This document shows, in pieces, positions 4,726 to 47,650 of a DNA stretch of 64,000 nucleotides. The notes below the pieces were generated by a model that saw only the letters and a program-made list of their open reading frames with translations, was not told the DNA's origin and did no database searches. The stretch spans positions 2,496,001 to 2,560,000 of the forward strand of contig OY761159.2 in the NCBI GenBank assembly GCA_963664395.2, read 5' to 3'. The stretch comes from Candidatus Binatia bacterium (GTDB lineage Bacteria > Desulfobacterota > Binatia > Bin18). The first letter of the stretch is position 1, and every line of letters begins with the position of its first letter. Made by a program: the position numbers and the translations under genes.

Positions 4726-5561
4726 CCACTGATATGGAACGGCACGTACTCGGTCTTTCCGGCGGGCGTGACAGTGCGGCACTGGCTGTCTACATGCGGC
4801 AGCAGCATCCCGCGCTCGACATTCAGTATTTCTTTACGGACACGGGCAAGGAGCTGCCCGAGGTATACGAATTTCTTGGGCGGCTGGAAGGTTTTCTCGG
4901 ACAGCCCATATTACGGCTGAATCCTGACCGGGATTTTGATTTCTGGCTGAAGCAGTACAACGACTTTCTGCCCTCTCCGCAAACCCGTTGGTGTACCCGG
5001 CAACTCAAGCTGCGTCCGTTTGAGCAGTGGTTACGTCCAATGCTGCAAGCCGGCGAGACGATCTACAGCTACGTAGCGATCCGTAGCGATGAAGAATACC
5101 GGGAGGGGTATTCGTCCAAGAATGACAAGCTCATCGTTAAACTACCCTTCAAGGAAGCGGGTATCGACAAGCCCGGCGTTCTGGAAATTCTTGATGGTGC
5201 CGGGCTGGGCTTGCCGAAGTACTACTCATGGCGTACCCGTAGCGGCTGCACGTTTTGCTTTTTTCAGCAGAAGATCGAATGGGTGCGACTCAAGGAGCAG
5301 CACCCCGACGCTTTTGAGGAAGCCAAAGCCTACGAAAAGACTGCCGTTAAAAACGGCTCGCCTTTCACCTGGAGCCAAGGCGAGTCATTGGAAGAGTTGG
5401 AACGACCGGAACGCATAGCCCAGATCATGCAAGATCACGAACGACGCCTTGCGCGTAAACGCTCCAAGGTCCAGCCAAATCCATTAAGGCCGGACGGCGA
5501 GCCGTTGGATATAGATGATCTGTACGGCAAGGCAAAGGTGTGTTTGGCGTGTCATAAGTAA
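4722..5561 (+). CDS. sspD: PAPS reductase / PP-loop family protein, SspD-like
   Basis: PP-loop LSGGRDS, RWCTRQLK, RSGCTFCFFQ, C-terminal CLACHK. Confidence 0.85.
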   Translation: MTTDMERHVLGLSGGRDSAALAVYMRQQHPALDIQYFFTDTGKELPEVYEFLGRLEGFLGQPILRLNPDRDFDFWLKQYNDFLPSPQTRWCTRQLKLRPFEQWLRPMLQAGETIYSYVAIRSDEEYREGYSSKNDKLIVKLPFKEAGIDKPGVLEILDGAGLGLPKYYSWRTRSGCTFCFFQQKIEWVRLKEQHPDAFEEAKAYEKTAVKNGSPFTWSQGESLEELERPERIAQIMQDHERRLARKRSKVQPNPLRPDGEPLDIDDLYGKAKVCLACHK

Positions 5562-5618
5562 TGAGTGGTCAGATAGTGCTAGACAACACCCATAGAATCA
5601 ACAGGGACAGCACCTTGT

Positions 5619-5861
5619 ATGGTCCCCCACTCCCCCTCGGACGCAGTCTGCCACTCCGGTACCCCTGCCGAATCCTCCTATGTCCTGCGCGCTGTCGGCC
5701 TCGGCCATGAAAATGCCTACGCGACCCCACGCATCGCCGCCGGCCGCACCACCGCTCACGCTGAGGCGGAACATGCTACGCGCCGTATCGAAGAAACCGT
5801 AGGCGTATTGCGAAAGTTATGGGCGCAAACAAGTTTTGGATCTGTGAGCGATGTTTGTTGA
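5619..5861 (+). pseudogene. C-terminal remnant of a second cysteine desulfurase (DndA/IscS-like)
   Basis: SDAVCHSGTPAESSYVLRAVGL...ATPRIAAGRTT resembles the SGSACxSG..PSHVLRAMG..SLRFSLGRxT C-terminus that carries the catalytic Cys loop. Confidence 0.6.
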
Positions 5862-6141
5862 TAAAGAAGCCGAAGTCCTAAAAGTCGATACGGAGGCGAT
5901 AAAAATACGACTCTTGGGGGAACCCTACGTCGTTTACAATTCGTTTGGATATCAGGCGGTGGTCGATATTTGGCACATCAAGAAAAGACGGCAGTTTCGG
6001 TTGTATCTGTCTGCGAAGTCGCTGTCGTCACAGCTAGAGAAGATAAGGAATGCAAATGCGCTAGACTATTTTACAGGTATAGAATTTTGGATTAGTAAGG
6101 CATCTAATGAGCGGTCTTCAGCCTACGCACTGTCGGAGTAA
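5851..6141 (+). CDS. Hypothetical protein (96 aa)
   Basis: Clean AT-richer ORF, tightly spaced with the next two genes. Confidence 0.6.
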   Translation: MFVDKEAEVLKVDTEAIKIRLLGEPYVVYNSFGYQAVVDIWHIKKRRQFRLYLSAKSLSSQLEKIRNANALDYFTGIEFWISKASNERSSAYALSE

Positions 6142-6145
6142 AAAC

Positions 6146-6595
6146 GTGCTGTTTCCAAATACATTCTCCGCGGAAATTCGAAAGTACGGAAAAAGGTTCA
6201 CCCTGCGAAATATCTTATCGACTGCACAAAACGCGCTAGGCGTCTACATATTTCATCACAACCATAATTTCATTTATGTAGGGCAATCCATAAGAGTTAA
6301 AGACCGTCTTGTACGTCACTACAATGAATCTCACAATGAGGAATTAGCCACCTGGATCAAAGCGCTTGATGGTAATATAAAATTTACTATATTCTATAAT
6401 ACCCAAATTGACGACCTGGAGAGATCACTTATTTTTTATCTACAGCCCATAACGAACAGAGAACGATATCCAGGCTACATACCGAAACGCACCAAATGGA
6501 GGAAGACCCATGCCCAGTGTACATCCAGCAATGAGGGGAAAGTTTGGCTCCACCGAGTACTTCATGTTGACAATGAAGGCTGGGGATGTCGCTAA
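6146..6595 (+). CDS. GIY-YIG nuclease family protein
   Basis: GVYIF...IYVGQS...RLVRHY...LERSLI...P..N motif set; GTG start after GGAG. Confidence 0.75.
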   Translation: MLFPNTFSAEIRKYGKRFTLRNILSTAQNALGVYIFHHNHNFIYVGQSIRVKDRLVRHYNESHNEELATWIKALDGNIKFTIFYNTQIDDLERSLIFYLQPITNRERYPGYIPKRTKWRKTHAQCTSSNEGKVWLHRVLHVDNEGWGCR

Positions 6596-7781
6596 TCAAC
6601 TTGTAATTCCAAAGGATATGCCTGATTGGGGAGAACTCGAACTCGAAGAGCGTTTTCAGAGAGAGATCAACTACAATCGAGTGAGAAAACAGATTGCACC
6701 TTATCTTGCTAACGATCCGGATCGATTCTTCGGAGCGCTGATTATTGCAGTAATCAACCCGGAATCGATGGAGTTCGAGGCCATGGATAACGTATCTAGT
6801 AAGATACCCAAGCTCTATCAGACTGCGTCCAAATCGTTTGGTTTCCTGACGCTATCTGGCGGCGAAATGTTGGTTCCACTAGATGGGCAACATCGGCTCG
6901 CTGCGATTAAATTCGCGCTTTCTGGAAAAGATGAAAAACAAAAACCGATCCAAGAAATCAATCCAAATACTGAACTTGCCAACGACGACGTACTCCTAAT
7001 AATGGTCAGGCATGATCCTGAGAAAGACAGGAGGATATTTAATAAGGTTAATAGATATGCAAAGGCCACAACCAAAGCCGAAAATCTGATCACTTCTGAC
7101 GATGATATTATCGCAATTATTTCAAGAGAGATAATTGCGAATGAACTAATCGGAAGCCGTCTTGTCAACTACCGGAGCAATACATTACCGGATTCCGTTC
7201 ACTATTTTACAACTTTATCAACGATATACGATGCAACGAAACATGTACTTGAAGAGCATTTCGGAAAGATCAACGATCAGGTATTACCAGACAATGCAAA
7301 CAAAAAAATGTACGAAAACGTAGCGAGAGAATATTGGGATCGCCCGTTAAGAGGTGTGACTATTTATAACGCTGCTCTATCAGATAACACCGAAGGTGGA
7401 GATGAAAAGCGAATAGAGATAAGAAAAAGTTTGCTCCTAGGGAAGCCAATATCTCAATTATCGTTGATGCTGGCGATCATAAGACTGAAAAATGTAGAAC
7501 AACCTGATGGATCAAGATTATCTTGGGAGATCATCCTAGACCGCATCAATAAAGTGAATTGGGAAATTGATAATCCAATGTGGCAAAGGATTCTGATGAA
7601 CGGGGCTAGAATCGTTAACGGGAAGCAAGCTGCTGCCTTTGCTTCCCGATTTATTGCCTACTATATCGGAGAGCCTTTGGAGGAGACAGAATTGGATAAT
7701 TTGAAAGATGTTTTTGCCAGCCATTTCTCTGAAGCCGAACGTATGAGTATCGGCCTTCCAGACAGACTGTTCAATCCCTGA
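6510..7781 (+). CDS. DGQHR-domain protein (DndB-like, ParB/Srx-related fold)
   Basis: FQREIN..R, LDGQHRLAAI and IFNKVNRYAK motifs; GGAGG RBS. Confidence 0.85.
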   Translation: MPSVHPAMRGKFGSTEYFMLTMKAGDVANQLVIPKDMPDWGELELEERFQREINYNRVRKQIAPYLANDPDRFFGALIIAVINPESMEFEAMDNVSSKIPKLYQTASKSFGFLTLSGGEMLVPLDGQHRLAAIKFALSGKDEKQKPIQEINPNTELANDDVLLIMVRHDPEKDRRIFNKVNRYAKATTKAENLITSDDDIIAIISREIIANELIGSRLVNYRSNTLPDSVHYFTTLSTIYDATKHVLEEHFGKINDQVLPDNANKKMYENVAREYWDRPLRGVTIYNAALSDNTEGGDEKRIEIRKSLLLGKPISQLSLMLAIIRLKNVEQPDGSRLSWEIILDRINKVNWEIDNPMWQRILMNGARIVNGKQAAAFASRFIAYYIGEPLEETELDNLKDVFASHFSEAERMSIGLPDRLFNP

Positions 7782-8085
7782 TTGCTCTGTGAAATTTGAT
7801 CTTCCAGTATTTGAAATCGTCGGATTTCTTGGGTTCCGACCTTAAACGATAGAAGGGAATGTGCGGTCTGTCACGACGATTGGGCTTCGCGACAATAGCG
7901 AAATATCCACTGAATGTTTCCCTCAACGCGGGAGTGTATCGTACACGCCCGTCCGTGATAGCGCCGGACTCCACGAGGTCAATCACTGCCAATAGCAGGC
8001 AAGGTTTATGAGGACTCTCTCCGCCATGAGTTGCGTCGACGTTGAGATTGGCGAACATCCATAGATATTCTTGTAAATCAGGCAT
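7771..8085 (-). pseudogene. Truncated sulfur-binding-domain (SBD) N-terminus of a PT-dependent HNH endonuclease, lacking HNH
   Basis: SPHKPCLLLAVIDLVE...IPFYRL resembles SBD motifs of ScoMcrA/SprMcrA-like proteins. The ORF ends at 104 aa against the convergent DGQHR gene. Confidence 0.6.
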
Positions 8086-8768: not shown

Positions 8769-9104
8769 CTATAACGGCCCCTGTTGGCCTTCAACCTCAG
8801 GCTTGCCGGGGAAGCGTTCGACCTTGATAGCGTTTTCCCTCTGTCGAGCCTGGGCGATATCGTAGCTGTTCTGCATTCGCATGAGCGTGTCCATGCCAAC
8901 GCCGAAAGCCTTCTCGATGCGCAGAGCCATTTCTGGGGAAAGCGAGGAGCGCCCGTTCAGCAGTGCCGAGAGCGCAGGCCGCGTGACGCCCAGCGCCCTT
9001 GCGGCTTCCGTGACGGAAAGTTTCAGCGGCTCGATAATTTCGGTTTTGACAAACCCACCCGGATGAGGCGGATTCTTCAGCCTATAGCTTTTGGATGTCT
9101 CCAT
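8769..9104 (-). CDS. higA: HigA-family addiction module antitoxin (orphan)
   Basis: PPHPGGFVK..LSVTEAARALGVTRPALSALLNG..SLSPEMALRIEKAFG. Confidence 0.85.
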   Translation of the reverse strand: METSKSYRLKNPPHPGGFVKTEIIEPLKLSVTEAARALGVTRPALSALLNGRSSLSPEMALRIEKAFGVGMDTLMRMQNSYDIAQARQRENAIKVERFPGKPEVEGQQGPL

Positions 9105-9138
9105 GGTTTTCACCCTTTCAGTCAAAGTATGGGATAGC

Positions 9139-10617
9139 CTAACGCACAGCCTGGCGCATCAGCCGGTGCCCGGCCAAACGGAGGCCGCGAGCGGCTAAGG
9201 CGATCTGCCAGCCCTCTCGGGTGCCGATTAACTCGGGCTTTTCGTACAGTCCCTTTTTCTCTTCTTGGCGGGTCAGGCGGGAGAATTTTTCATACAGGGG
9301 ATGATCTGTGGAGATAAATGTTTCTTTCCGGTGCAAAATCGGCGGATTGGGTGAATCCTGGTAGTTGCGGTACCGAATCTTGAACGTTTGCAAGGGAACG
9401 ATAAGGGAGCTGGCGAGAGCGGGATGCGGATCGCGCTCGAAGTCCGGGTAGGAGAGATAAGAAACGCGGGGTTTGTCTCTGTGCAGCTTGATAATGTTCG
9501 CGTTTTCGACAACCCCGATATATGCCCGCGCACAGCCTTCAAAGGCGCGCAAGATGGGCGGGAGGTGCGGCAGGGCTGATTCGTGAACGTATAAGGCTTC
9601 GCGCGTCAGTTTCCCAACAGGCGCGGTACGACACGCCTGATCGACCGCAGTACGATCACCGGCGGAGAAAAGGAGATCATCGGCGAGAGAGCAGGCGCGG
9701 CTATAGGACGAGAAAAACGCACGGACATCATGCTGTAAATCGCGGGGTAATTGCGTAAAGCGCGGGCGGCCCTCAAAACGGGAGAGCGCAACATACAGGA
9801 GAATATCCTGCTGACGCTCGGCTCGAATTTTACTCCACTCTTCATCGCCGGTGACGCGCCGGATGACGCCATACGCCCGTTTGAGACTCCCCAACGCCTG
9901 GCAAATGAGTTCCGTCTCCGGCAGCTCAGCGTCTTCCGGTAAGCGCCCGCGGGCCGTCAGAAATCCGATCAGCGGTTCCAAGATGTCTTTGTGTTGTTCA
10001 AACAGGACTTCGCTGAGACGTTGGCGCGGAACCGTAAACTGGCGTCGATACCGAGAGGCGGCAAAGGACTGGCGTTGCTGCGAGTCCCGAAACACATAGA
10101 AAATCCCCGGTCCGGCCGGCACGCTCGGAGTACCGAGAACAGTGTCGATCCACTCGCGTAATTCTTGCTGTTCAAAGAATTTCTGGAATGTCCCCAAGCG
10201 CGTAATACCGCCGTCGGTGTGGGGGGTCAGCGTAGCGAACGCTGTTTCTAGTGTGAGGCGGGCAGAGACAATCAGCACTTTCCGGGTCAACTCCCACGCC
10301 TGCCGGAGGGCTTCGGTGCGCTCGCGGGGGTTTTCGATCACGTTGACTACGTAGCCAAGATTCACAATATCGGCTGGAGTCTGCTCGTTGTCCGGGAAAT
10401 AGGCCGGGTCCCAGCCCTGGCAGGGAATCTGCCGATGTCTGAGATGCAGAATATCCGTTCCCCGCCCGCAGCCATAATCAAAGACGGTTGTCTCTGGGGT
10501 GATAAGGCCAGCCTCAAGGGCGAGCCGGACCGGACGGGAGAGGTCGGTCCGGGTGATTGCGGTGCGATGTCGCTCAATCGTGGGCGCTGCCATCGGCTCG
10601 TCGGCTGCTCGTGCCAT
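9139..10617 (-). CDS. DNA phosphorothioation-associated putative methyltransferase
   Basis: RHRTAITR..LSRPV, VFDYGCGRG.D, GWDP.Y, VNLGYVVNVIE, TFQKFFEQ.EL, SYLSYPDF..DPHPAL, NPPILHRKE. Start uncertain (up to 10713). Confidence 0.85.
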   Translation of the reverse strand: MARAADEPMAAPTIERHRTAITRTDLSRPVRLALEAGLITPETTVFDYGCGRGTDILHLRHRQIPCQGWDPAYFPDNEQTPADIVNLGYVVNVIENPRERTEALRQAWELTRKVLIVSARLTLETAFATLTPHTDGGITRLGTFQKFFEQQELREWIDTVLGTPSVPAGPGIFYVFRDSQQRQSFAASRYRRQFTVPRQRLSEVLFEQHKDILEPLIGFLTARGRLPEDAELPETELICQALGSLKRAYGVIRRVTGDEEWSKIRAERQQDILLYVALSRFEGRPRFTQLPRDLQHDVRAFFSSYSRACSLADDLLFSAGDRTAVDQACRTAPVGKLTREALYVHESALPHLPPILRAFEGCARAYIGVVENANIIKLHRDKPRVSYLSYPDFERDPHPALASSLIVPLQTFKIRYRNYQDSPNPPILHRKETFISTDHPLYEKFSRLTRQEEKKGLYEKPELIGTREGWQIALAARGLRLAGHRLMRQAVR

Positions 10618-36537: not shown

Positions 36538-36600
36538 TTGATATTTTTCACTATAATTCATATTTTCATCGTGTGATGAAAGTTGGACAAACAGTGAAAG
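36538..36600 (+). promoter_or_regulatory. Putative sigma70 promoter overlapped by inverted repeats (operator)
   Basis: TTGATA-17-TATTTT; palindrome TTTCATC-gtgt-GATGAAA at 36564-36581; outer TTTCACT/AGTGAAA pair. Confidence 0.5.
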
Positions 36601-37688
36601 AAATAGAAATCATGGCCGTGGACGCTGTCCGCGACTTGCTCGGCCGTGTGCCGAACATAGACATCAGCGAGGTTCGCCAAGAGCAGATTGTGGCGTCCGA
36701 CTACCGCATTTACCAGATTGATGGGTGGATTGCCTTTAGCCATGGCGGTATGAATTATGCGCTCATCATAGAGATCAAAGCAAATGGGTCACCGCGCTTT
36801 GCCCGATCTGCCGTCTATCAACTCGAGAGCTTCATGGCGCATTTGCATCAATCTGATCGCCAGGACGTCACCCGACAGTTCATCCCGATGCTGGTCAGTT
36901 CCTACCTGTCTCCGGAGTCGCGGTCGATCTGCACCGATCACAATGTCGCTTACCTCGATCTTGTCGGTAACGCACACCTCGATTTCGACAACGTCTATAT
37001 CGAGCGATCCGTCGCAGACAGACCAAGGTCCGAAACGCGCGCTCTGCGGTCAATATTCACCCCGAAGGCAGCCGCTATCTTGCGGGTCCTCCTTCGCGAT
37101 CCAGACCGGGCATGGCGTATTACCGACTTGGCCGAAGCAGCCAATGCGAGCCTCGGCCACGTGAGCAACGTTCGCAAAGCCCTGCTTGCACGGGAGTGGA
37201 TCGAAAAACAGCACGACGGCGTCGTCTTGGTCCAGCCGGAGGCGCTATTGAAGACATGGCGCGAGAATTACCGCCAGCCGGCTGGTCACCGCATCAGCGG
37301 ATACACGCATCTCCACGGGGAACAACTCGGCAAGCGATTGTCGGGAAAACTAAATCCGCACCCACAGCGTCCGCGCGCAATTTATTCGTCAAACTCGGCC
37401 GCTCAATGGCTTGCGCCCTTTGCCCGGGGCGGCACACATAGTTTCTACGGCGACGAACCCGGCGCTCGCATGCTGAAAGAAACGTTGAAGCTGACTCATG
37501 CCGCAAAGGGGGCGAATGTCATCCTGCGTATCCCGAATGATGAGAGTCTGTTCGAAGACGCTGTTCAGCCGGCGTCGGGCATTTTCTGCACCAGTCCGAT
37601 CATTACCTACCTCGATCTGTGGAACGGCAACGATCGAGACCGTGAGGCCGCCGACCATATGGCCACGAAGTACTTTCCATGGTCATGA
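36573..37688 (+). CDS. AbiEi-like antitoxin/regulator with N-terminal PD-(D/E)XK-like and wHTH regions
   Basis: IDG...IIEIK, YLDLVGNAHL, HTH WRITDLAEAANASLGHVSNV, GANV.L, SPI..YLDL....R..EAA. Confidence 0.7.
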   Translation: MMKVGQTVKEIEIMAVDAVRDLLGRVPNIDISEVRQEQIVASDYRIYQIDGWIAFSHGGMNYALIIEIKANGSPRFARSAVYQLESFMAHLHQSDRQDVTRQFIPMLVSSYLSPESRSICTDHNVAYLDLVGNAHLDFDNVYIERSVADRPRSETRALRSIFTPKAAAILRVLLRDPDRAWRITDLAEAANASLGHVSNVRKALLAREWIEKQHDGVVLVQPEALLKTWRENYRQPAGHRISGYTHLHGEQLGKRLSGKLNPHPQRPRAIYSSNSAAQWLAPFARGGTHSFYGDEPGARMLKETLKLTHAAKGANVILRIPNDESLFEDAVQPASGIFCTSPIITYLDLWNGNDRDREAADHMATKYFPWS

Positions 37689-38536
37689 GAGAACCTCAAT
37701 CCGCCGCCGACTATGATGACCGGACGACAACGGCGGTCAAATCCGTACTGATCGAGATCGGCCAGATCCTCGGCAGCTTTGAAGGCAAGTTTGCGATCAT
37801 CGGCGGCGCCGTTCCTTGGCTGTTGCTGAGCGAAGCGGACATGCCCCATATCGGCACCGGAGACGTGGACCTCTGTCTCGACCCCTCCGCCCTGGGCGAC
37901 GGCGAATATGTTCGACTTGTCGAAGCCCTCCAGCAACATGGCTACAATCAACGGGGTAATCTTCGGCGCTTTCAACTCGTACGCACCGTACCCGCCTCGG
38001 ACGACGGGTCCGACATCGATGTCGTCGTCGACTTCCTAATGCCACGTGACGCTGAGATCACAAAAAATACGCCGCCGCTTATCAGCCAGTTTGCCGTCCA
38101 GCGTGCCGACGGCGTCGACCTAGCGCTCAGGTTCTACCAGATGGTCGCCGTCGAAGGCGATATGCCCGATGGCGGCAGCAATCGCGTTCGCATCGCCGTG
38201 GCGTCGATTCCTGCTCTGCTGGCCATGAAAGGTTATGCCATCACCAATCGTCTGAAACACAAGGACGCCTATGACATCTACTATTGCGTCCGAAATTTTC
38301 CGGATGGCGTCGATGCTCTCGTCGAGGTGACACTGCCGTTTCTTGACGTTGAAACAGCCCGGCAAGGCTACTGTCTGATCTCGGACAAATTCCGTAACGT
38401 TGATGATTTCGGGCCGACCAGTGTCAGAATATTCGTGGAAGGTTCCGATGTGCTTGGTGATCGCACAGCGGATCAGTGGCAGCAGGACGCCTTTGGGCAG
38501 GTTGACGCTTGGCTCGGAGGGCTTGGCTTGAGGTAA
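37679..38536 (+). CDS. Nucleotidyltransferase (AbiEii-like toxin)
   Basis: IIGGAVP...HIGTGDVD, VVDFL, LLAMKG.A...R...KDAYDI; overlaps the upstream gene. Confidence 0.75.
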   Translation: MVMREPQSAADYDDRTTTAVKSVLIEIGQILGSFEGKFAIIGGAVPWLLLSEADMPHIGTGDVDLCLDPSALGDGEYVRLVEALQQHGYNQRGNLRRFQLVRTVPASDDGSDIDVVVDFLMPRDAEITKNTPPLISQFAVQRADGVDLALRFYQMVAVEGDMPDGGSNRVRIAVASIPALLAMKGYAITNRLKHKDAYDIYYCVRNFPDGVDALVEVTLPFLDVETARQGYCLISDKFRNVDDFGPTSVRIFVEGSDVLGDRTADQWQQDAFGQVDAWLGGLGLR

Positions 38537-38539
38537 TCC

Positions 38540-39439
38540 ATGCAAAGGGCGTCAAATAGCAGGATACGTAGTATGGACATGCCGATCATCGACAGGGTGT
38601 TCGGTATGGAAGGCGGCTTGGTGCTCAATTTTTTCGATAGGACCTTCGCCGAGTTCTTTCACGAAGAACTCCAGGTTGGTATCGACGATCCGCGTTGGGC
38701 CGCTCAGGGTAGAAGCAAGGCAAAGCGCCTGCGCTACTACTTGAGGCAGGCGGACCGACGAACAGCGCTTGATACGCTGAATGCGCTATGGAAGTACCGT
38801 GAAGCGAGCAGTGTGACCCATGACTATGCGAAGCTTGAAGACTCGGTACGGCTTGCATTCTTCAGGATCATTGAACGGCTCGGGGGCAAGCCACCAGCAC
38901 ACGAAGTATCTACCGCTACGCCGTCCGAACCGCGGATTGATGAAGTGGCGGCCTCATCTCTTGCTGGTCGTTTGCTTGATCTCTCCAAGATACAGCCACA
39001 GGCCCGCGGCTATGCGTTCGAGAAGTTTTTGAAGGACATGTTTGACGCATACGGGTTGTCCGCACGCGCCTCCTTCCGCCTAGTGGGTGAGCAGATCGAC
39101 GGCAGTTTTGTTTTGGGAAATGACACCTATTTGCTTGAAGCGAAATGGACTAATTCTCTAACCGGTGTGGAGACGCTTCGCTCTTTCAACGCCAAGGTCG
39201 AGGACAAGGCGACATGGTCACGCGGCCTTCTTTTGAGCCATAGCGGCTTCACACCTGAAGGGCTCGCTGCATTCGGACGCGGCAAAAGCGTTGTTTGCAT
39301 GGATGGCCGTGATTTATATGACATCTTGTCGCGTCGGCTTGACTTTGCGGCCACGCTCGCGATGAAGGTTCGGTGGGCGGCCGAAACAGGCCAACTCTTC
39401 GTAAGTGTGAGCGCCCTCGTTCCCCCGTCCAATCTCTGA
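38540..39439 (+). CDS. Mrr-like restriction endonuclease with N-terminal helical domain
   Basis: RGYAFE..L..MF, EQIDGSF...YLLEAKW, GL..S.SGFT, V.MDG.DL. Confidence 0.8.
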   Translation: MQRASNSRIRSMDMPIIDRVFGMEGGLVLNFFDRTFAEFFHEELQVGIDDPRWAAQGRSKAKRLRYYLRQADRRTALDTLNALWKYREASSVTHDYAKLEDSVRLAFFRIIERLGGKPPAHEVSTATPSEPRIDEVAASSLAGRLLDLSKIQPQARGYAFEKFLKDMFDAYGLSARASFRLVGEQIDGSFVLGNDTYLLEAKWTNSLTGVETLRSFNAKVEDKATWSRGLLLSHSGFTPEGLAAFGRGKSVVCMDGRDLYDILSRRLDFAATLAMKVRWAAETGQLFVSVSALVPPSNL

Positions 39440-39498: not shown

Positions 39499-40431
39499 TC
39501 ATCGCTGCCATTCCCCCATTCTCACGTAACGAATTGCTGCAAGGGCGGCTGTTGCTCCGTCTCCAGCCGCAGACACGAGCTGCCGTGAGGAGTCGCTGCG
39601 GACATCACCGGCTGCCAGGACGCCAGGCGTTGCCGTCCGCATCCAGAGATCGGTCACAATCTGCCCCTGCGCATTGAGCGGAACAAGGTCTCCCAGAAAT
39701 CGGGTATTGGCAGTCAGGCCGATGTAGAGAAATACGCCGGTGACATCCAGACGGGAGGGCTGCCCCGTTGTCACGTCTTCGAGCCGTATCCTTTCGACAC
39801 CGGTGGCGCCTTCGATTGCCCGCACAACGGTATTCCAACAAAAGGAGAGCTTGTCGTTTGCCTGTGCCCGTTCTTGCAAAAGCTGACAGGCGCGCAGAGC
39901 ATCACGCCGATGAATAACCGTGACGTGCGAGGCATACTGGGTGAGATGGAGTCCTTCATCGAGCGCAGCATCACCCCCCCCAACAACGGCTACCGGCTTA
40001 TCCATAAAAAATGCGCCGTCACACGCCGCACAGTGCGAGACCCCTTTGCCCACAAATTCTTCTTCACCGGGGATGCCGAGCGTTGAAAAATGTGAGCCAG
40101 TCGCGACGATTAGCGCTTTTGTTTGAAAGGGACCGCTATCCGTTTGCAGCACGAGCACCTCGCCGTCCCGCTGTACTGCGCTGACCTCTGTCAGTTGCAG
40201 CTCAAGCCCGAGGCTGGTTGCCTGGTGTTGCAGCAGTGGCCCAAGGGTATAGCCGGCGACGCCATCCGGAAAACCCGGATAGTTTTCAATATGCTCGCAG
40301 TTAAGCACCTGCCCGCCGGCAGAAAAGCGTTCGAGCAAGAGCGCCCGGCAGCGATCCCGCGCGGCATATAAGCCAGCGGTAAATCCAGCCGTGCCGCCGC
40401 CTATGATAATGATGTCGTATGGTTGTGACAT
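39499..40431 (-). CDS. trxB: Thioredoxin reductase
   Basis: IIGGG.AG, IENYPGF, GVSHCAACDG, VVGGGD.A, AAGDV. Confidence 0.92.
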   Translation of the reverse strand: MSQPYDIIIIGGGTAGFTAGLYAARDRCRALLLERFSAGGQVLNCEHIENYPGFPDGVAGYTLGPLLQHQATSLGLELQLTEVSAVQRDGEVLVLQTDSGPFQTKALIVATGSHFSTLGIPGEEEFVGKGVSHCAACDGAFFMDKPVAVVGGGDAALDEGLHLTQYASHVTVIHRRDALRACQLLQERAQANDKLSFCWNTVVRAIEGATGVERIRLEDVTTGQPSRLDVTGVFLYIGLTANTRFLGDLVPLNAQGQIVTDLWMRTATPGVLAAGDVRSDSSRQLVSAAGDGATAALAAIRYVRMGEWQR

Positions 40432-40557
40432 GGGTTTATCCTCAATTGTCTCAGTTGAAAAAGTGGTGAGCATAATAGCTGAGCGCTGGGCGTTCAGCTA
40501 TGAGCCACCTTATGCTCTTTTTGATCGACCAAGAGCCATTGCTGGGGCATCTCTGGA

Positions 40558-41028
40558 TTGTCGAGGAACATCAAGCCCGAATCCGAGGTGCAAGCGAGTA
40601 AGCTCGACATGGGAGGCCGGTTGGGATTGCCCGACTGGCACAAATTTGCCATATGGAAGGGCATGCCTGGTTTACTGCGCTTACTGCTCTGGGACCGCTT
40701 TCGGCGCGCGGTGGCGCATGCTTTTGCCGTTGGCCCGGTATCAACCCAACTCTCCCCGCAGGACCTTCAGCTTCTTGAAAAAGTGGCCAACGCCATTGTG
40801 AGCCGGAGACTTGACACACCGGCGGTCCTATTGCTCGAATCCAGCGAACCGCTCAATTTTCTCAGTAGCCAGATCATTCAAGGGCTCCGGCCTTTTCTCG
40901 ATCTCGTGTGTGCGCCGACAGAAACTGAACGGCTGGCCTGTATTCTGGAGCGGAGAGATGCCGTGTCCCGGCTTGTTCGGCTCATCCATGCGCAGCACGA
41001 TAAAGCGCCCTCTTCTTCTCCGCTATGA
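40558..41028 (+). CDS. Conserved hypothetical protein, first gene of the GlmL-like operon
   Basis: LLEKVA..IV.RRL..PA.L.LES..PLNF..SQ; stop overlaps the next ATG. Start uncertain. Confidence 0.65.
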   Translation: MSRNIKPESEVQASKLDMGGRLGLPDWHKFAIWKGMPGLLRLLLWDRFRRAVAHAFAVGPVSTQLSPQDLQLLEKVANAIVSRRLDTPAVLLLESSEPLNFLSSQIIQGLRPFLDLVCAPTETERLACILERRDAVSRLVRLIHAQHDKAPSSSPL

Positions 41029-42884
41029 ACCCTGAAGACCTGCGTGTCATCCTGGCGACGGATTGTGGCAGCACTACAACCAAGGCCGTCCTGATCCAAT
41101 ATCAAAACGACGAGTACCGACAAACGCACCGGGGCGAGGCGCCAACTACGGTTGAGGCTCCCTTTGAAGACGTGACGCGTGGGGTGCTGAACGCCATACA
41201 AGAGATTGAGGAGCTGTCCGGGCGGACTATTTTGGATGGGGAAACAATCCGTACTCCGGCCCATGGTTCGACGGGGGTTGATATTTATATTTCGACCAGC
41301 AGTGCCGGCGGCGGCCTCCAGATGGTCGTTAGCGGGGTTGTCCAGGCCATGTCGGCGGAGAGCGCCCAGCGCTGTGCATTAGGGACTGGGGCTATTGTCA
41401 TGGATGTGCTGGCCGCAAATGATGGCCGTCCGAGCCATGAAAAAATTGAGCGGATACGTCAACTTCGGCCTGACATGATTTTGTTTGCCGGTGGGACGGA
41501 TGGTGGCACAGTCTCCCATGTGGTTGAGGTGGCCGAGTATATTGCCGCGGCCGACCCAAAGCCGCGCTTGGGTCTGGGGTATAAACTCCCGGTCATCTAT
41601 GCGGGTAATAGAGACGTCCGGACTGAGGTGCAGGACATTTTAGGAGAGAAGGTTGCGCTGTCCGTTACTGAGAATATTCGGCCGGTGCTTGAACAAGAAA
41701 ACCTCAGGCCGGCCCGACAGAAAAGCCATGATCTTTTTCTTGAGCATGTCATGGCGCAGGCACCTGGATATAAAAGGCTTATTTCGTGGGTGGGCGCCCC
41801 TATTATTCCAACCCCAGCGGCCGTCGGCATGCTCATAGAAACGGTTGCCCGCCGCGAAGGGCTGAATGTCATTGGGGTCGATATTGGGGGGGCGACGACC
41901 GATGTCTTTTCGGTCTTTGATGAGATTTTCAACCGGACCGTGAGTGCCAATCTGGGCATGAGCTATAGCGTCGCAAATGTCGTCGCCGAAGCCGGACTGG
42001 AGCATATCCAGCGCTGGTTGCCATTTTCCTATGAAGAGTCCCGGCTTCGGAATCAGATTACAAATAAAATGATCCGGCCAACAACCATACCGCAGACGGT
42101 TGAAGACCTGCATATTGAGCACGCTATTGCGCGCGAAGCCCTGCGTTTGGCCTTGGAGCAACACAAACAGTTAGCCGTTGGGTTGAAAGGCGTACAACAG
42201 GAACGCTCTGTGTCCGACGCATTTGCACAAGCCCACTCAGGACAAAGCCTGATTGAGCTGTTCGCACTCGATCTCGTGATTGGCAGTGGCGGTGTTTTGT
42301 CCCATGCGCCCCGCCGCGTCCAAGCCATGCAAATGCTTGTCGATGCGTATCTCCCGTTGGGTCTGACGCAGATTGCCGTTGACGGTATTTTTATGATGCC
42401 ACATTTGGGTGTGCTTTCGACGGTGCATGAACAGGCGGCCACCGAGGTGTTTCATAAAGATTGTCTGATCCCGCTTGGTACCTGTATCGCCCCGAACGGT
42501 GTAGGAGATCCGGGGGAGCCGTGTTTTTCTTATGCTCTTCAGTTCCCTGATGGGACGAGACAAGAAGGCGCGGTGACCTGTAGCAGCCTGATACATATTC
42601 CTCTGGCACTGGGTCAGGCTGCGGATATTGAACTGCGACCCTCTCGAAAATTTGACTTTGGAGCTGGCCGAGGAAAGACCCTCACCGGGATAGTAACTGG
42701 CGGGGAGGTCGGCCTCTTGCTCGATGCCCGGGGCCGGCCACTGCCGTTCCCCACAGACGAAGATACCCGAGTGCAGCAGGTCCGGGAGTGGCACCACGCC
42801 GGGGATATGTATCCCGCGCAACAGGGCCGAGACCTACAGGTCTCGGCCCCTGAGAAACATCCTCAAAAATTCTTCAGTCCTTAG
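41025..42884 (+). CDS. GlmL/MutL(glutamate mutase reactivase)-like ASKHA protein
   Basis: TDCGSTTTK, SSAGGGL, GGTDGG, PTP.AV, VDIGGATTDVFS, RTV..NLGM, GSGGVL. Confidence 0.85.
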   Translation: MNPEDLRVILATDCGSTTTKAVLIQYQNDEYRQTHRGEAPTTVEAPFEDVTRGVLNAIQEIEELSGRTILDGETIRTPAHGSTGVDIYISTSSAGGGLQMVVSGVVQAMSAESAQRCALGTGAIVMDVLAANDGRPSHEKIERIRQLRPDMILFAGGTDGGTVSHVVEVAEYIAAADPKPRLGLGYKLPVIYAGNRDVRTEVQDILGEKVALSVTENIRPVLEQENLRPARQKSHDLFLEHVMAQAPGYKRLISWVGAPIIPTPAAVGMLIETVARREGLNVIGVDIGGATTDVFSVFDEIFNRTVSANLGMSYSVANVVAEAGLEHIQRWLPFSYEESRLRNQITNKMIRPTTIPQTVEDLHIEHAIAREALRLALEQHKQLAVGLKGVQQERSVSDAFAQAHSGQSLIELFALDLVIGSGGVLSHAPRRVQAMQMLVDAYLPLGLTQIAVDGIFMMPHLGVLSTVHEQAATEVFHKDCLIPLGTCIAPNGVGDPGEPCFSYALQFPDGTRQEGAVTCSSLIHIPLALGQAADIELRPSRKFDFGAGRGKTLTGIVTGGEVGLLLDARGRPLPFPTDEDTRVQQVREWHHAGDMYPAQQGRDLQVSAPEKHPQKFFSP

Positions 42885-42908
42885 TACGCATTACCTATTC
42901 TTGAGATC

Positions 42909-44072
42909 ATGGCTCACGCATATACTCCAGGCCTGAGGGTCACAGCTGACACGACCATTCAAAAGACACGGCTTCTTCCTCTTCCTGGAGAAGTGGTCGT
43001 ATCCGAAGGAGACAGCGTCTCCGCCACCACTGTGGTGGCGCGGACCGAGCTGCCCGGACGGGTGTATCCCATTAATATTGCCAATCGCTTGAGCATCTCT
43101 CCCGGTGATGTCTCTCGGTATCTCCTGGCCCGTGAAGACGAGCGGGTGACCCAAGGCCAAGTCGTGGCTGAGAACCGCCCTTGGCTCAAGTGGTTCCAAA
43201 CACAAGTCCGTGCGCCTGTCACAGGGACTATCGAAACGGTCTCACACCGAACCGGCCAGGTCTTCTTGCGCGAACCGCCCCAAGTGCTTGATCTGGGGGC
43301 CTATATAGCCGGGCAGGTCACCACGGTCATGCCGCAGCACGGGGTAGTTGTTGCGGCCCGGGGGGCGCTCGTGCAAGGCATCTGCGGGGTTGGTGGTGAG
43401 ACGCATGGTCCTCTGACCTTCGGTGTTGAAACACCTGAAGAGACGCTTACTGCTGCGCATCTGACCCCTGAACAGCGGGGCTATATTGTCATTGGGGGCG
43501 CGTTTGTCCAGCCTGAAGCCTTTGCACGAGCCCGTGAAATCGGCGTCCACGCCCTCATTGTTGGCGGGGTAGACGCTGCCGACCTCAAAGCGCTGCTCGG
43601 CTATGACTTGGGGGTTGCTATTACCGGAACGGAGCACATTGGATGTACCCTTATTCTGACCGAGGGCTTTGGGCGGATTCCTATGGCCCGGCGTACGTTT
43701 GAACTGTTCGCTGCTCATAGTGGTCGGCTGGCCTCGTGTAGTGGAGCAACCCAGATTCGCGCTGGGGTGATTCGTCCCGAGATTGTTATTCCGAGACCCA
43801 GCGCGTACAAGACCTTCAATACGGAGGCTGCCGTGCAAGGAAGGCACGGTGCGGAGGCAGGCATTCAAGTGAGTGACGTGGTGCGCATCATTCGGGAACC
43901 GTACTTTGGCAGCCTCGCTCGGGTCAGGGCGCTGCCACCTGAGCTTCGGCGGATTCCAACCGAAAGTACTGTCCGCGTGCTTATTGCAGAGTTACCGGAT
44001 GGTCAAGAGATCACTATTCCTCGGGCGAATGTGGAGATGATTGAGGGGGAGGAAGATGGGACTAGGGATTAG
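42909..44072 (+). CDS. Conserved hypothetical protein with barrel-sandwich-like repeats and KOW-like C-terminus
   Basis: GEVVVSEGDSV...VVA, E.ERV..GQVVA...VRAPVTGTI, GYDLGVAITG.E, VRIIREPYFG..A.V. Confidence 0.65.
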   Translation: MAHAYTPGLRVTADTTIQKTRLLPLPGEVVVSEGDSVSATTVVARTELPGRVYPINIANRLSISPGDVSRYLLAREDERVTQGQVVAENRPWLKWFQTQVRAPVTGTIETVSHRTGQVFLREPPQVLDLGAYIAGQVTTVMPQHGVVVAARGALVQGICGVGGETHGPLTFGVETPEETLTAAHLTPEQRGYIVIGGAFVQPEAFARAREIGVHALIVGGVDAADLKALLGYDLGVAITGTEHIGCTLILTEGFGRIPMARRTFELFAAHSGRLASCSGATQIRAGVIRPEIVIPRPSAYKTFNTEAAVQGRHGAEAGIQVSDVVRIIREPYFGSLARVRALPPELRRIPTESTVRVLIAELPDGQEITIPRANVEMIEGEEDGTRD

Positions 44073-45399
44073 GGGCTGGGGGTTAGCCGCTCGTGAAGAA
44101 CGCCGTCAGCGTTCGGATACGGGTGGGGCATGCCAGCCCTCGACGTGCTGGGTTGTGCTGCTTGGGCTGACTATGCTCCTTTCCTTTCTTGTGCAGGTCA
44201 GGGTGCTCGCCTCCGATTATCCCCTGACTGGCGAAGCCTTCGATATGCCGGGGGACGGTGGTGGCAGCATCGGCCTACGCTGGGAAGGGTACTTTGAAGA
44301 GACGGGAGAGGCACGCTACCAGGTTTTGCTCGGTGACCGGGAGCAGGGTGAGTTTCGAGTGGTCGCGACGTTTCCTGCCAATACCCACTATGAAAAAGAC
44401 CGTCCGGCTCCGTGGTGGATGAGATGGATTGTTGGTACTCCGCAACCAGGCGCGCATTTCTTTCGAGTCAGCACTGGCGCAGATGTCCCATTGGTGAATG
44501 GGAGGCGATATTTCGTGAAAATTGTTGCTCTCATTGGGGGAGAACGATTTGAGAGTCCGGTGTTCTCGGCGCTGCCTCAGCCGAACTGGTTTCAGTGGGG
44601 CAAGCTCAATAACTTTCTTTTCATGCTCGCGTTTAGCACCGGCGTGCTGCTCTCGATTCGCTCGGCCCGGACGAATCCCAATATCTTTCTTCGTCGTATC
44701 CCCGGCATTGATGCGGTCGAAGAGGCGGTTGGCCGGGCAACGGAAATGGGTCGGCCGATTTTATATCTGACCGGCAGTGGCGAGTTAACGGGGAGCGGCG
44801 ATGCGTCCAATCTGTCGACTATTGCGGCCACCGTTATTCTGGGAGAGGTGGCGAAGCGGGCGGCCGTGTATGGGACGGCCATAAAAGTCCCGCATCGTTC
44901 GGCCATTGTGATGGCCATTTCCCAGGAAATAGTCAAAGAAGCCTACCTGACCGCTGGTCGGCCGGACGCCTATTCTGACGACAGCAATTTTTTTATTACC
45001 GCAGACCAATTCGCGTATACCGCGGCGGTTGACGGCATCATGCTGCGCGACCGGCCGGCGGCCAATTTTTTCATCGGCTATTACTACGCCGAGGCGCTGC
45101 TGCTGGCCGAGACCGGCGCTACAACAGGAGCGATTCAGATTGCCGGGACGGATGCGGAGCATCAGTTGCCATTTTTTATTACTGCCTGTGATTATACCCT
45201 GATAGGTGAGGAGCTGTATGCCGCCAGTGCCTATCTGTCGCGCGACCCCGCGCTGGTCGGTACGCTCCGCGGCCAGGATTTGGGGAAAGGCTTCTTACTC
45301 ATAGGTCTGGTGTTGGGAACAGTGCTCATCACAATAGGTGATCTTACCGGACTGGCCATCTGTGAGACCGCCGTTCAGGTTTTCCACGATTTTCGGTAG
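44056..45399 (+). CDS. Membrane protein with an extracytoplasmic FN3-like domain and a conserved C-terminal domain (DUF6754-like)
   Basis: LRRIPGIDAVEEAVGRATEMGRP, QIAGT...QLPFF..ACDY.LIGEELYAASAYL. Start uncertain. Confidence 0.65.
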   Translation: MGLGIRGWGLAAREERRQRSDTGGACQPSTCWVVLLGLTMLLSFLVQVRVLASDYPLTGEAFDMPGDGGGSIGLRWEGYFEETGEARYQVLLGDREQGEFRVVATFPANTHYEKDRPAPWWMRWIVGTPQPGAHFFRVSTGADVPLVNGRRYFVKIVALIGGERFESPVFSALPQPNWFQWGKLNNFLFMLAFSTGVLLSIRSARTNPNIFLRRIPGIDAVEEAVGRATEMGRPILYLTGSGELTGSGDASNLSTIAATVILGEVAKRAAVYGTAIKVPHRSAIVMAISQEIVKEAYLTAGRPDAYSDDSNFFITADQFAYTAAVDGIMLRDRPAANFFIGYYYAEALLLAETGATTGAIQIAGTDAEHQLPFFITACDYTLIGEELYAASAYLSRDPALVGTLRGQDLGKGFLLIGLVLGTVLITIGDLTGLAICETAVQVFHDFR

Positions 45400-45421
45400 G
45401 AGCGCTGGGCAGGAGGAAAAA

Positions 45422-46069
45422 GTGCTTTTCTGGCAACGCACAGTCCCACTCTTGATTACTTTTGTGTTTGGGCTGGCGCTTGTCCTGCAATACTATGTGC
45501 CCCATCCTGCCTCGGAAAGTTTTTTGCAGGAGGTTTCGCTCTGGAATCAAATTATTGCCGGGTTCGCCATCGTGCTGGGCGTCGGGAGTCTGCTTTCAAA
45601 CCATTACCTTAAAATCAAGCGTCAGGAAGCCGGCTGGGGATATAGCGCGGTGCTGTTCGTGTCACTGTTCACCGTGTTCGGGGCCGGGCTGTGGGCTGAG
45701 GGAAAAGCCGCCGGGACTTTCTTTGGATGGCTGTACGAGTATGTCTTGGTGGCGCTTCAGGGAACGATGTTCTCACTGCTGGCTTTTTTTGTCGCGTCCG
45801 CGGCCTACCGGGCTTTTCGGGCGCGGACGCTTGAGGCGACGGTTCTGCTCAGCGCAGCCGTCCTGGTTATGGCTGGCCGTGTTCCCCTCGGTGAGTATGT
45901 CCTGCCTGGGGTCGGATATATCTCCGACTGGATTATGAATGTACCGAACACGGCGGCCCAACGCGGCATTCTGATTGGCGTGAGCTTGGGCGGTATTGCC
46001 ACCTCGATCAAAATTATTTTTGGGATCGAACGCGCCTATCTGGGGGGAAGCCATAATGACGGTGCGTGA
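45422..46069 (+). CDS. Conserved hypothetical polytopic membrane protein
   Basis: AGGAGG RBS plus GTG; about 6 hydrophobic helices; TMFSLLAFFVASAAYRAFRAR, GIERAYLG. Confidence 0.75.
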   Translation: MLFWQRTVPLLITFVFGLALVLQYYVPHPASESFLQEVSLWNQIIAGFAIVLGVGSLLSNHYLKIKRQEAGWGYSAVLFVSLFTVFGAGLWAEGKAAGTFFGWLYEYVLVALQGTMFSLLAFFVASAAYRAFRARTLEATVLLSAAVLVMAGRVPLGEYVLPGVGYISDWIMNVPNTAAQRGILIGVSLGGIATSIKIIFGIERAYLGGSHNDGA

Positions 46070-46895
46070 GTTTGCCCTGCGTGTGTTGCAATTGGACCGG
46101 CGTTTCATCTTTGTGCTGATGGGCTTGGTGACGTTGCTTCCTTTGCTCTACCCACTCGGCCTGCCGGTGCGCGTTTCGCCGGAAGCGTACAATATCTATG
46201 ACACGCTTGAGCACCTGCCTGAGCGTTCGGTGTTACTCGTGTCGCTTGATTTCGACCCGGCCTCAAAACCCGAACTCTACCCCATGACCGTTTCGCTCTT
46301 ACGTCATGCTTTTGCCAGAAACCTGCGCGTCGTGACTCTGACCCTCTGGCCGGCGGGAACGAGTATGGCGGAGTCCGCGGTCATTCAATTTGCCGAAGAA
46401 GCCGGCAAGAAAGATGGGACGGACTATGTCTTCCTCGGCTACGGGCCTGGGGAAGCGAATGCCATTATCAGTATGGGGCAGAGTCTGACCGACGCATTTC
46501 CAACCGATTACGCCGGCCGGAAAACCGACACGCTGCCCGTGCTCGCAGGCGTCCGCAGCTTACGCGATATTGATTATGCCATCAGCCTCAGCGCCGGCTT
46601 TCCCGGCCTCGAGACCTGGTATGTGTACGGCAAAGAGAAGTACGGCTTTGAGCTTGGCGGGGGCTGTACCGCAGTCAGTGCACCCAAGTTTTATCCGTTC
46701 CTGCAGACTGGACAAATTAATGGTCTGCTGGGCGGACTACGCGGCGCAGCCGAATATGAAACGCTGCTCAATCAGGCCGGTAAAGCGACCGCCGGCATGG
46801 ATGCGCAATCAGCCACCCATTTTCTTATTATCGGTCTGATTGTCGTCTGCAACGTCTGCTCCGTGCTGAGTGGCCGTAGGCGAGGGCGCTTATGA
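46056..46895 (+). CDS. Conserved hypothetical membrane-anchored alpha/beta protein
   Basis: N- and C-terminal TM segments; DFDP...PEL.P, DYV.LGY, G.LGG.RGAAEYE. Confidence 0.75.
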   Translation: MTVREFALRVLQLDRRFIFVLMGLVTLLPLLYPLGLPVRVSPEAYNIYDTLEHLPERSVLLVSLDFDPASKPELYPMTVSLLRHAFARNLRVVTLTLWPAGTSMAESAVIQFAEEAGKKDGTDYVFLGYGPGEANAIISMGQSLTDAFPTDYAGRKTDTLPVLAGVRSLRDIDYAISLSAGFPGLETWYVYGKEKYGFELGGGCTAVSAPKFYPFLQTGQINGLLGGLRGAAEYETLLNQAGKATAGMDAQSATHFLIIGLIVVCNVCSVLSGRRRGRL

Positions 46896-47650
46896 GTCCG
46901 GAGACGATGACCATAGTGGGCGCATGGGTTGCCACGGGTTTAAGCCTGTTTATCTATTCGTTTCTGTATAAGGATAATCCGTTCTTCAAGCTGGCTGAGC
47001 ATATCTTTGTCGGTGCTTCGGTCGGCTATCTTTTGGTCATCACGTACCATGAAGTCATACTTAAAAAGCTCGCTGTGCCCCTTATCGAGCAGCACGAATG
47101 GCGGCTGGTTATTCCGCTTCTCCTCGGCCTCCTGCTGTTAGCTCGGTTTTTCCCTCGCCTGGCCTGGAGCAGCCGCATTACGTTTGCCTTTATTTTAGGG
47201 GTGAGTTCAGGGGTGGCAATTCCGCGCCAACTGTCCTCGTTTATTTTGCAGCAGGTCCAGGGCACCTTGAAGCCACTCCTCACTGTTGACCCCATGGGAG
47301 GAGTCAGCTTCGGCCTGGCTGAACTGAACACGCTCCTTATTCTTATTGGCGTCGTCAGCGTTCTCGTCTACTTTTTTTTCTCTATTGAACACACCGGTAG
47401 CGTTCGTAGCGTGGCACGAGTTGGGATCTGTTTTCTCATGATCTCGTTCGGTGCCGCCTTTGGCTACACCGTCATGGCCCGCATGTCGCTGCTCATCGGT
47501 CGATTCGACGAGCTGATTCTGTACGCGGCGCCGGAGTATGGATATGCAACGATTGTGCTACTAGGAGTCGTGACGGGAGGGCTCGTATGGTGGCAGCGGC
47601 GATCTTTTCAGACGGATATCAAGACCCCGCCTACTGAAGGGACACAATAG
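46892..47650 (+). CDS. Conserved hypothetical polytopic membrane protein
   Basis: YSFLYKDNPFFK.AEHIFVG, FLMISFGAAFGYTVMARMSLLIGR. Confidence 0.75.
   Translation: MSPETMTIVGAWVATGLSLFIYSFLYKDNPFFKLAEHIFVGASVGYLLVITYHEVILKKLAVPLIEQHEWRLVIPLLLGLLLLARFFPRLAWSSRITFAFILGVSSGVAIPRQLSSFILQQVQGTLKPLLTVDPMGGVSFGLAELNTLLILIGVVSVLVYFFFSIEHTGSVRSVARVGICFLMISFGAAFGYTVMARMSLLIGRFDELILYAAPEYGYATIVLLGVVTGGLVWWQRRSFQTDIKTPPTEGTQ

Follow-up and report, generated by a model that had tools for sequence, protein, structure and literature searches.

A seven-gene cluster in Candidatus Binatia pairs a GlmL-family ASKHA protein with a DUF6754 membrane module and looks like an undescribed bacterial system

Within a stretch of 64,000 nucleotides (nt) from Candidatus Binatia (assembly GCA_963664395.2, contig OY761159.2, positions 2,496,001 to 2,560,000 of the forward strand; hereafter the window, which is contig C1 2496001-2560000 of our genome G000, 5.04 Mb, 96% complete, contamination estimate 5.4%), we analysed a cluster of seven genes, g1 to g7, that fills positions 40558-47650. 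All are program-called open reading frames (ORFs), tightly packed on the forward strand (Table 1), so that the seven co-oriented genes with overlaps or short gaps described by a first-pass annotation of the window are indeed present at these coordinates. They form two modules: a membrane module, M (g1 and g4-g7), built around a protein of the DUF6754 family, and a soluble module, S (g2 and g3), built around a protein of the GlmL/MutL family. By sequence, five of the seven proteins appear to belong to no characterised family and the cluster seems to fit no known kind; it looks like an undescribed system.

Table 1 Coordinates of the cluster genes and of other features in the window, with alternative gene starts suggested by alignment of homologues
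Feature	Position	Strand	Description	Start from homologue alignment
g1	40558-41028	+	ORF, 156 aa	Probably ATG 40609 or 40663 (121-139 aa)
g2	41025-42884	+	ORF, 619 aa	
g3	42909-44072	+	ORF, 387 aa	
g4	44041-45399	+	ORF; DUF6754	Likely ATG 44056
g5	45338-46069	+	ORF	Likely GTG 45422 (215 aa)
g6	45996-46895	+	ORF	Likely ATG 46056 (279 aa)
g7	46892-47650	+	ORF, 252 aa	
Thioredoxin-reductase-like gene	39499-40473	-	Flanks cluster	
rplS, RNA methyltransferase gene, trmD		-	Other flank of cluster	
AbiEi-like antitoxin/regulator	36573-37688	+	Just upstream of cluster	
AbiEii-like nucleotidyltransferase toxin	37679-38536	+	Just upstream of cluster	
Mrr_cat restriction-endonuclease-domain protein	38540-39439	+	Just upstream of cluster	
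GIY-YIG nuclease-domain protein	6107-6595		In low-GC stretch	
DndB-like DNA-sulfur-modification-associated protein	6510-7781		In low-GC stretch	

With the revised starts, the successive junctions from g1 to g7 are an overlap of 4 nt, a gap of 24, an overlap of 17, a gap of 22, an overlap of 14 and an overlap of 4 nt, overlaps of 4-17 nt and gaps of 22-24 nt such as a single operon would show. In two metatranscriptome libraries of one study, contigs of a 95-99% identical strain partly cover each of the seven genes and span the g1/g2, g2/g3, g5/g6 and g6/g7 junctions; they are weakly compatible with a polycistronic transcript, with DNA carry-over possible and with strand and ends not shown by the contigs, and the stretches that they leave uncovered (e.g. 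46323-46623) carry no meaning. Scans for promoters and terminators returned counts at chance level (5 versus 3.6 expected; 10 versus 9.1 expected), and Rfam had no match within the window. At 41061-41407, inside g2, each of the four runs has high-depth contigs whose match is confined to 22-26 nt at either end, with a contig stretch of the same length that diverges between the end matches (299 positions skipped); more abundant organisms in those samples probably carry a related g2 gene.

The core of module S is g2, which matches PF13941 (MutL) over the entire model (E = 6e-128, model positions 1-450). The two ASKHA phosphate motifs that had been noticed in this 619-aa protein are clearly there, as D13-x-G-S-T-T-T-K20 and D286-I-G-G-A-T-T-D293; together with an adenosine-type GSGG motif they are invariant in 14/14 homologues, and the full-length match combined with the phosphate-1, phosphate-2 and adenosine motifs places g2 in PF13941 and the ASKHA fold. 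It carries a conserved C-terminal extension of ~140 aa, and no other protein of the cluster is as conserved between phyla (63-82% identity). Neither phmmer nor a profile search found a relative of g2 in the PDB. We read g2 as a putative ASKHA-fold ATPase of the GlmL/MutL family, one that presumably hydrolyses ATP.

Its partner g3 has three domains. The N-domain is a barrel-sandwich hybrid, with RnfC_N recognised in 14, Biotin_lipoyl in 13 and NQRA_N in 7 of 17 members; the window protein itself matches RnfC_N at 2.3e-4 (21.6 bits, cut-off 25.6), and the best value among the 17 members is 1.9e-6. The C-domain is weakly KOW-like (KOW in 4/17 members; Spt5/uL24 matches at E 0.05-0.6), so the initial description of a soluble barrel-sandwich/KOW-like protein fits. 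Between them lies a well-conserved middle domain with the motifs GVAITGTE, TEGFG and SGATQIRAGVIRPE, for which Pfam, profile searches and hhalign against RnfC detected no relatives, and phmmer and profile searches of the PDB with g3 gave no meaningful relative either. The idea, raised at motif level, that the middle domain is a swivelling domain of the phosphoenolpyruvate-utiliser type found no backing: no member matches PF00391 at E<=10. Among 87 proteins that are longer relatives of g3, most of them ~1000 aa long, 86 also carry PF13941, and g2 and g3 are thus fused in many lineages; of six fusions scanned with hmmscan, five have PF13941 N-terminal to RnfC_N/NQRA_N/Biotin_lipoyl hits or to a ~500-aa unassigned tail. 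From these sequences we take g2 and g3 to be one unit, apparently encoded as a single polypeptide in many lineages.

Two observations concern the fusions themselves. The one longer g3 relative that carries DUF6754 instead of PF13941 (P0121; 707 aa, a single-member cluster) consists of a g3 homologue, at 53% identity with 98% coverage, linked to the first half of DUF6754; it may be either a genuine fusion of g3 with g4 or an artefact of assembly or of a frameshift. Some of the ~1000-aa GlmL-g3 fusions (P0173, P0183 and P0177) begin with an XRE-type helix-turn-helix (HTH_3/HTH_31) or a zinc ribbon.

Module M is centred on g4, a DUF6754 protein (PF20539; E = 1.4e-112, 375.4 bits against a gathering cut-off of 27) that shows ~120 invariant columns in an alignment of ten homologues. 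All topologies given here for g4-g7 are predictions from a hydropathy scan and the positive-inside rule, and they bear out the earlier account of four membrane proteins, two of them polytopic (g5 and g7) and two with large soluble domains (g4 and g6). For g4, the segments above the hydropathy threshold are a signal/anchor at the N-terminus and a transmembrane (TM) segment at the C-terminus; a middle segment before the DUF6754 domain, read as TM from the sequence, lies below it. The predicted layout is a signal/anchor, a variable periplasmic domain, a TM segment, a cytoplasmic alpha/beta-type DUF6754 domain of ~200 aa and a C-terminal TM segment. The ~200-aa domain is very conserved, and with 45-80% identity between phyla the DUF6754 protein is under strong selection. 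The family is large, with 2393 representatives at 50% identity (E<=1e-3) and >8000 clusters at 90% identity, and its N-terminal part is variable: total lengths run from 308 to 1341 aa, some members show a weak fn3 or weak PQQ_2 match or HEAT repeats, and of eight long N-terminal extensions six contain no additional Pfam family and two contain HEAT repeats. Since this part varies in both length and domains, it suggests that the outside-facing portion of g4 adapts to lineage-specific partners and that the cytoplasmic portion is fixed. No relative of g4 was found in the PDB by sequence profile, and no cofactor-binding motif was recognised in it.

The remaining subunits of M resemble nothing characterised in the databases searched, and as single sequences none of them matches a Pfam or NCBIfam family. 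The hydropathy scan gives g5 six TM segments, and its conserved charged motifs are AAYRAFRARxxEA and GIERxYLGG; no Pfam family is consistent among 20 members, and the single PDB hit (E 1.7) is not meaningful. In g6, one TM segment at each terminus encloses a domain of ~220 aa that is predicted to be periplasmic; 16 members match no Pfam family, and all PDB profile hits are at E>=0.23. For g7, at least five hydrophobic segments were counted and the conserved motifs are SFLYKDNPFF, EH, AIPR and FGYTVMARMSLLIGR, with no meaningful Pfam family among 15 members and no PDB hit at E<=10. Paralogy was rejected both for g5 with g7 (hhalign probability 0.2%) and for g6 with g4 (0.3%). Lastly, g1 has no TM segment in the scan; its HAFA motif is invariant, and one stretch (PAxLLLES..PLNFLGSQ..HGLxPF) is moderately hydrophobic. 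It matches no Pfam or NCBIfam family as a single sequence or as aligned members (DUF2062 at E 0.064 only), and we assign it to M as a probable small soluble or peripheral protein.

HEAT/PBS-lyase-like repeats recur around the membrane module: they are joined to the g6 homologue in a Planctomycetota locus (L073:4075-6006) and, in two long DUF6754 proteins (P0281 and P0333), to the N-terminal part. Another Planctomycetota locus (L072:5231-12623) contains two tandem copies of the membrane module with no g1-g3 nearby, its second DUF6754 gene (8928-10283) being followed by g5-, g6- and g7-like genes.

The modular split emerged from gene order across loci. A one-genome-per-species scan yielded 207 g4 relatives, and we analysed the best 80 of these 207 loci, whose labels are Binatia, "Deltaproteobacteria", Methylomirabilota, Nitrospirota, Planctomycetota, Latescibacterota and WOR-3. 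Of the loci that extend 2.6 kb or more beyond g4, 64/64 have g5, g6 and g7 next, co-oriented and in this order. Upstream of g4, the 50 loci with at least 3.7 kb divide into 32 with g2 and g3 (31 of them with g1), 15 with g1 alone and 3 with none of these; the 15, all Binatia loci without g2 and g3, have g1 directly before g4, and the 3 genomes with nothing upstream of g4 keep g1-g2-g3 together elsewhere. A second set of 80 metagenome loci, gathered with distant g2-g3 fusions as the query, contains 19 with g4, and here the order varies: g1-g2-g3-g4-g7 (g4-g7 as a block) in 6/19, g2-g3-g1-g4-g7 with g1 between g3 and g4 in 8/19, the g4-g7 block preceding g1-g2-g3 in 2/19, g1-g4-g7 on one strand with g2-g3 divergent in one (L108), and one interrupted and one partial locus. 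Taken together, the metagenome and genome orders mean that g4-g7 is an unbreakable block, that g2-g3 is a second block and that g1 travels with either neighbour; g1 adjoins g2 or g4 in every arrangement seen and appears to link the two modules. Co-conservation of the genes, on which the first-pass proposal depended, is therefore upheld, and because identical genes in identical order recur in several phyla, the arrangement is far beyond chance.

All-against-all ORF clustering of the 80 loci found no additional neighbour conserved across phyla, only lineage-specific ones. A T2SS-E ATPase gene follows g7 in L046. In a Nitrospirales locus (L062), three Tll0287-like genes lie between g3 and g4 (4457-6914); other Nitrospirales loci have a gap there too. 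Downstream of g7, a Memo-like gene is present in L062 (10405-11673) and in L054 (10516-11775).

Outside the genus of G000, the two modules are tightly coupled. In a sample of the phylum of a Nitrospirales carrier, DUF6754 occurs in 18/151 genomes and PF13941 in 19/151; every genome with DUF6754 is among the 19, and the one extra PF13941 match is a fragment at a contig end. In the phylum of the Methylomirabilota carrier, DUF6754 occurs in 14/101 genomes, and 14/14 also encode a g2-type protein, so that 32/32 M carriers sampled in these two phyla have S. The distribution is patchy, and the system is rare in the Binatia genome's own phylum outside the genus, where 1/151 sampled genomes carries it (G000 itself) and 0/12 in other families of the class. 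Carriers comprise Binatia, Methylomirabilota, Nitrospirota, Planctomycetota, Latescibacterota and related uncultured lineages. The statement in the first-pass annotation that similar clusters also occur in archaea found no backing: the best 80 of the 207 loci all have bacterial labels and 14 control genomes, archaea included, lack DUF6754, with no archaea-specific search among these scans.

Comparison with known systems brought partial likenesses. No transporter family in Pfam or NCBIfam scored above cut-off for g4-g7, sequence profiles against the PDB gave nothing better than E 0.23 and PADLOC returned 0 families for all seven proteins at E<=0.1; the match to a characterised transporter that would have refuted the first-pass proposal is not seen in these sequence searches. 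The literature search retrieved no mention of DUF6754 or PF13941 and nothing relevant on "glutamate mutase L"/TIGR01319, supplementary files being outside the search. A fold-level link of the cluster proteins to a known superfamily is possible and is the main uncertainty. Around its phosphate motifs, g2 weakly resembles the ASKHA subunits of hydantoinase A, oxoprolinase and the acetone and acetophenone carboxylases (Hydantoinase_A, PF01968, 8e-5; Hydant_A_N, PF05378, 1.5e-4; both just below cut-off). Such hydantoinase-type subunits hydrolyse ATP and work with a second subunit, as described in PMC5214803. The cluster, however, has no HyuB-type partner, g3 is unrelated by Pfam, and the context is membrane-associated. 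The reactivases DdrAB/PduGH and EutA likewise pair an ASKHA ATPase bearing extra domains with a small partner and act on another protein complex, but g1-g3 match no DDR or EutA family at E<=0.1 and there is no B12 enzyme in the cluster. In overall design, the cluster recalls the mechanotransmission systems MacB, FtsEX and LolCDE, which also have a cytoplasmic ATPase, large TM-flanked periplasmic domains and variable extracytoplasmic parts; the cluster ATPase is of ASKHA rather than ABC type, ABC, MacB_PCD and FtsX families were undetected, and the ATPase module is dispensable in one clade.

Functionally, we posit that S docks on M and that ATP-driven closure of the ASKHA protein drives or gates a trans-membrane conformational cycle, a reading that we favour tentatively and to which we would give somewhat less than an even chance. 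M would form an inner-membrane hetero-oligomer with mass on both faces, the cytoplasmic DUF6754 domain and g1 on one side and the periplasmic g4 and g6 domains on the other, arranged around the polytopic g5 and g7. S would be the cytoplasmic ASKHA ATPase unit, docking on the cytoplasmic face of M via g1 and/or the DUF6754 domain, and ATP-dependent domain closure would drive or gate a cycle of M that acts across the membrane, either in transport or in mechanical signalling to the periplasmic domains. M itself would retain a basal activity independent of S. In favour of this reading are the constant order of the M genes, the genome-wide co-occurrence of M and S, the g2-g3 fusions, g1 as a link between the modules, the invariant ATPase motifs, the tight junctions and the RNA-library contigs that span four of them. 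The best-supported picture is that S is functionally tied to M but dispensable.

Several results weigh against S as the motor of M, and most of them come from the genus of G000. There, DUF6754 occurs in 14/18 sampled genomes and PF13941 rises above cut-off in only 6/28 genomes, the own genome included; 12/14 M carriers of the genus lack S (PF13941 over cut-off in 2/14), several of these genomes being single contigs, and two (G001 and G002) contain no PF13941 at all. In this S-less clade g1 and g4-g7 are all intact, with median pairwise dN/dS of 0.29 for g1, 0.21 for g4, 0.07 for g5, 0.12 for g6 and 0.16 for g7 (14 sequences, 90-91 pairs per gene). S was thus apparently lost in most M-carrying species of the genus, and because the M genes remain intact and under purifying selection (dN/dS 0.07-0.29), M would function without it. 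Conversely, S can seemingly stand alone: nine distant g2-g3 fusion loci have neither g1 nor g4-g7 and share no neighbours, and one genome from the phylum of the Methylomirabilota carrier (G403) has a 1011-aa PF13941 open frame, the size of a putative g2-g3 fusion, and no DUF6754 match. Depth is low in the RNA-library contigs, some of which may derive from DNA, and no transporter is known to be powered by an ASKHA ATPase. The ATP-driven machine suggested in the first-pass annotation consequently survives in part: S accompanies M in every M carrier of the two other phyla, but it is separable, absent from most M carriers of the own genus and stand-alone elsewhere.

The same results feed a rival, unlikely in our judgement but the most serious one, in which S works by itself in the cytoplasm, as an enzyme or an ATP-dependent chaperone/maturase. 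In carrier lineages it would service, mature or repair the DUF6754 domain, or belong to the same pathway as M, but would not power M; S would then resemble the ASKHA reactivases of B12 enzymes or the hydantoinase-type enzymes, and M would be a self-sufficient membrane enzyme or transporter. Retention of M under purifying selection without S, the stand-alone fusions with variable neighbours, the G403 frame without DUF6754 and the position of g2 in the GlmL/hydantoinase-A branch all suit this reading, as do at least nine metagenome loci in which g1-g2-g3 or g2-g3 are followed by 5-10 kb without M. Yet the complete co-occurrence in two phyla is hard to square with it, genomes without M being nearly devoid of S (1/133 in the first phylum; of 87 in the second, two with g2-type proteins, G413 and G403, and one, G427, with a canonical-type GlmL), S and M are usually adjacent, and g4 offers no recognised cofactor-binding motif. 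We consider it improbable that g2 is instead an actin-like polymerising protein with M as its membrane anchor, in a positioning or morphogenetic system comparable to MreB-RodZ or PilM-PilN. Its conservation across phyla is what one sees in proteins with many interfaces, the N-terminal XRE-type helix-turn-helix of some g2-g3 fusions is suggestive, as RodZ binds MreB through a helix-turn-helix domain of this kind, and MreB-like_C is weakly matched (E 0.011); but the closest families of g2 are GlmL and hydantoinase A, no actin-like family (MreB, ParM, FtsA or PilM) is matched above cut-off, and MreB-like_C itself reaches 16.7 bits where 27.8 are required. Nor does an anchor without its filament sit well with g2 being fused to g3, or with lineages that lost S and kept M.

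That the cluster is a distant, cofactor-poor analogue of Rnf or Nqr, with g3 as the RnfC/NqrA-like, g6 as the RnfG/NqrC-like and g5 and g7 as the six-helix RnfA/E-like components, seems to us very improbable. Subunit number and predicted topologies are alike, g3 is soluble and encoded beside membrane subunits, and its barrel-sandwich N-domain, which matches RnfC_N and NQRA_N, is shared with RnfC and NqrA: hhalign, run with 5 of 8 ORFs (7 distinct records), relates it to RnfC at 84% probability and P 7e-6, whereas the other pairs of domains give P 0.05-0.74. Homology of g3 to RnfC past this domain was rejected, however, the middle and C-terminal domains giving P 0.11-0.74 and the whole-length alignment reaching 37% probability only through the N-domain. 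Neither 51K-type, SLBB or Fe-S domains nor any other Fe-S- or flavin-binding family was found in the cluster, and g4-g7 match no Rnf-Nqr, RnfD/NqrB or FMN_bind family as single sequences or as 15-20 members each. Conserved cysteine clusters are absent, the sole SGAT motif lies in the cytoplasmic g3 and was judged to lack the upstream Asp of the flavinylation consensus, and an ASKHA partner has no place in either complex. The Binatia genome itself has no RnfC_N match at E<=0.001.

That g2 is an ordinary GlmL accessory protein, serving a B12-dependent glutamate (methylaspartate) mutase or related aminomutase encoded elsewhere, is largely refuted and in our view barely credible, despite its PF13941 membership and source names such as "glutamate mutase L" among its relatives. 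With its C-terminal extension g2 is ~600 aa long, against 451-521 aa for canonical-type GlmL, and it reaches neither the GlmL equivalog NF040745 (237.5 bits, cut-off 475), nor Or-4 (214.2 bits, cut-off 600), nor glmL_fam (176.3 bits, cut-off 204). Searches for PF06368 (Met_asp_mut_E, the glmE product family) came back empty for the own genome and for 5/5 other carriers (0/6 carriers in all), as against hits in 3/5 genomes of the same phylum with canonical-type GlmL; the strict co-occurrence with a B12 mutase that would have undone the first-pass proposal is thus not seen, and g2-type proteins co-occur with DUF6754 instead, paired with or fused to g3. Nor is there a B12-binding domain in the window, consistent with the original observation that it encodes no B12 enzyme: the six B12-binding-domain matches of the genome all lie outside it, in genes >200 kb from the cluster. 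Two of the B12-binding matches have equal scores and sit in 1203-aa frames on two contigs (G000 C1:2124655-2125002 and C7:15465-15812), which suggests a duplicated or redundantly assembled region.

If S does act on M as a motor, the cluster might represent a new class of inner-membrane machine, a possibility we hold to be real though rather doubtful, whose cytoplasmic motor would be a GlmL-branch ASKHA ATPase, paired with or fused to a barrel-sandwich/KOW adaptor, and not one of the ABC, AAA+, P-type or rotary kinds, and whose work would be passed to variable periplasmic domains. Such a machine would provide the first GlmL-family function outside B12 enzymology and, should the ATPase energise the complex, a new coupling of ATP to a membrane process. 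The cluster also gives most "glutamate mutase L" labels of environmental genomes another meaning: the protein here goes with a membrane complex and not with a B12 enzyme. Ready handles for testing these ideas are the g2-g3 fusions and the natural experiment of a genus in which some species have M together with S and others M alone.

Two other features of the window lie apart from the cluster proper (Table 1). The AbiEi-like, AbiEii-like and Mrr_cat genes just upstream (36573-39439) look like a small defence islet. At 6001-8000 the GC content drops to 0.429, compared with ~0.56 elsewhere, and this stretch, which contains the GIY-YIG and DndB-like ORFs, is probably foreign DNA.

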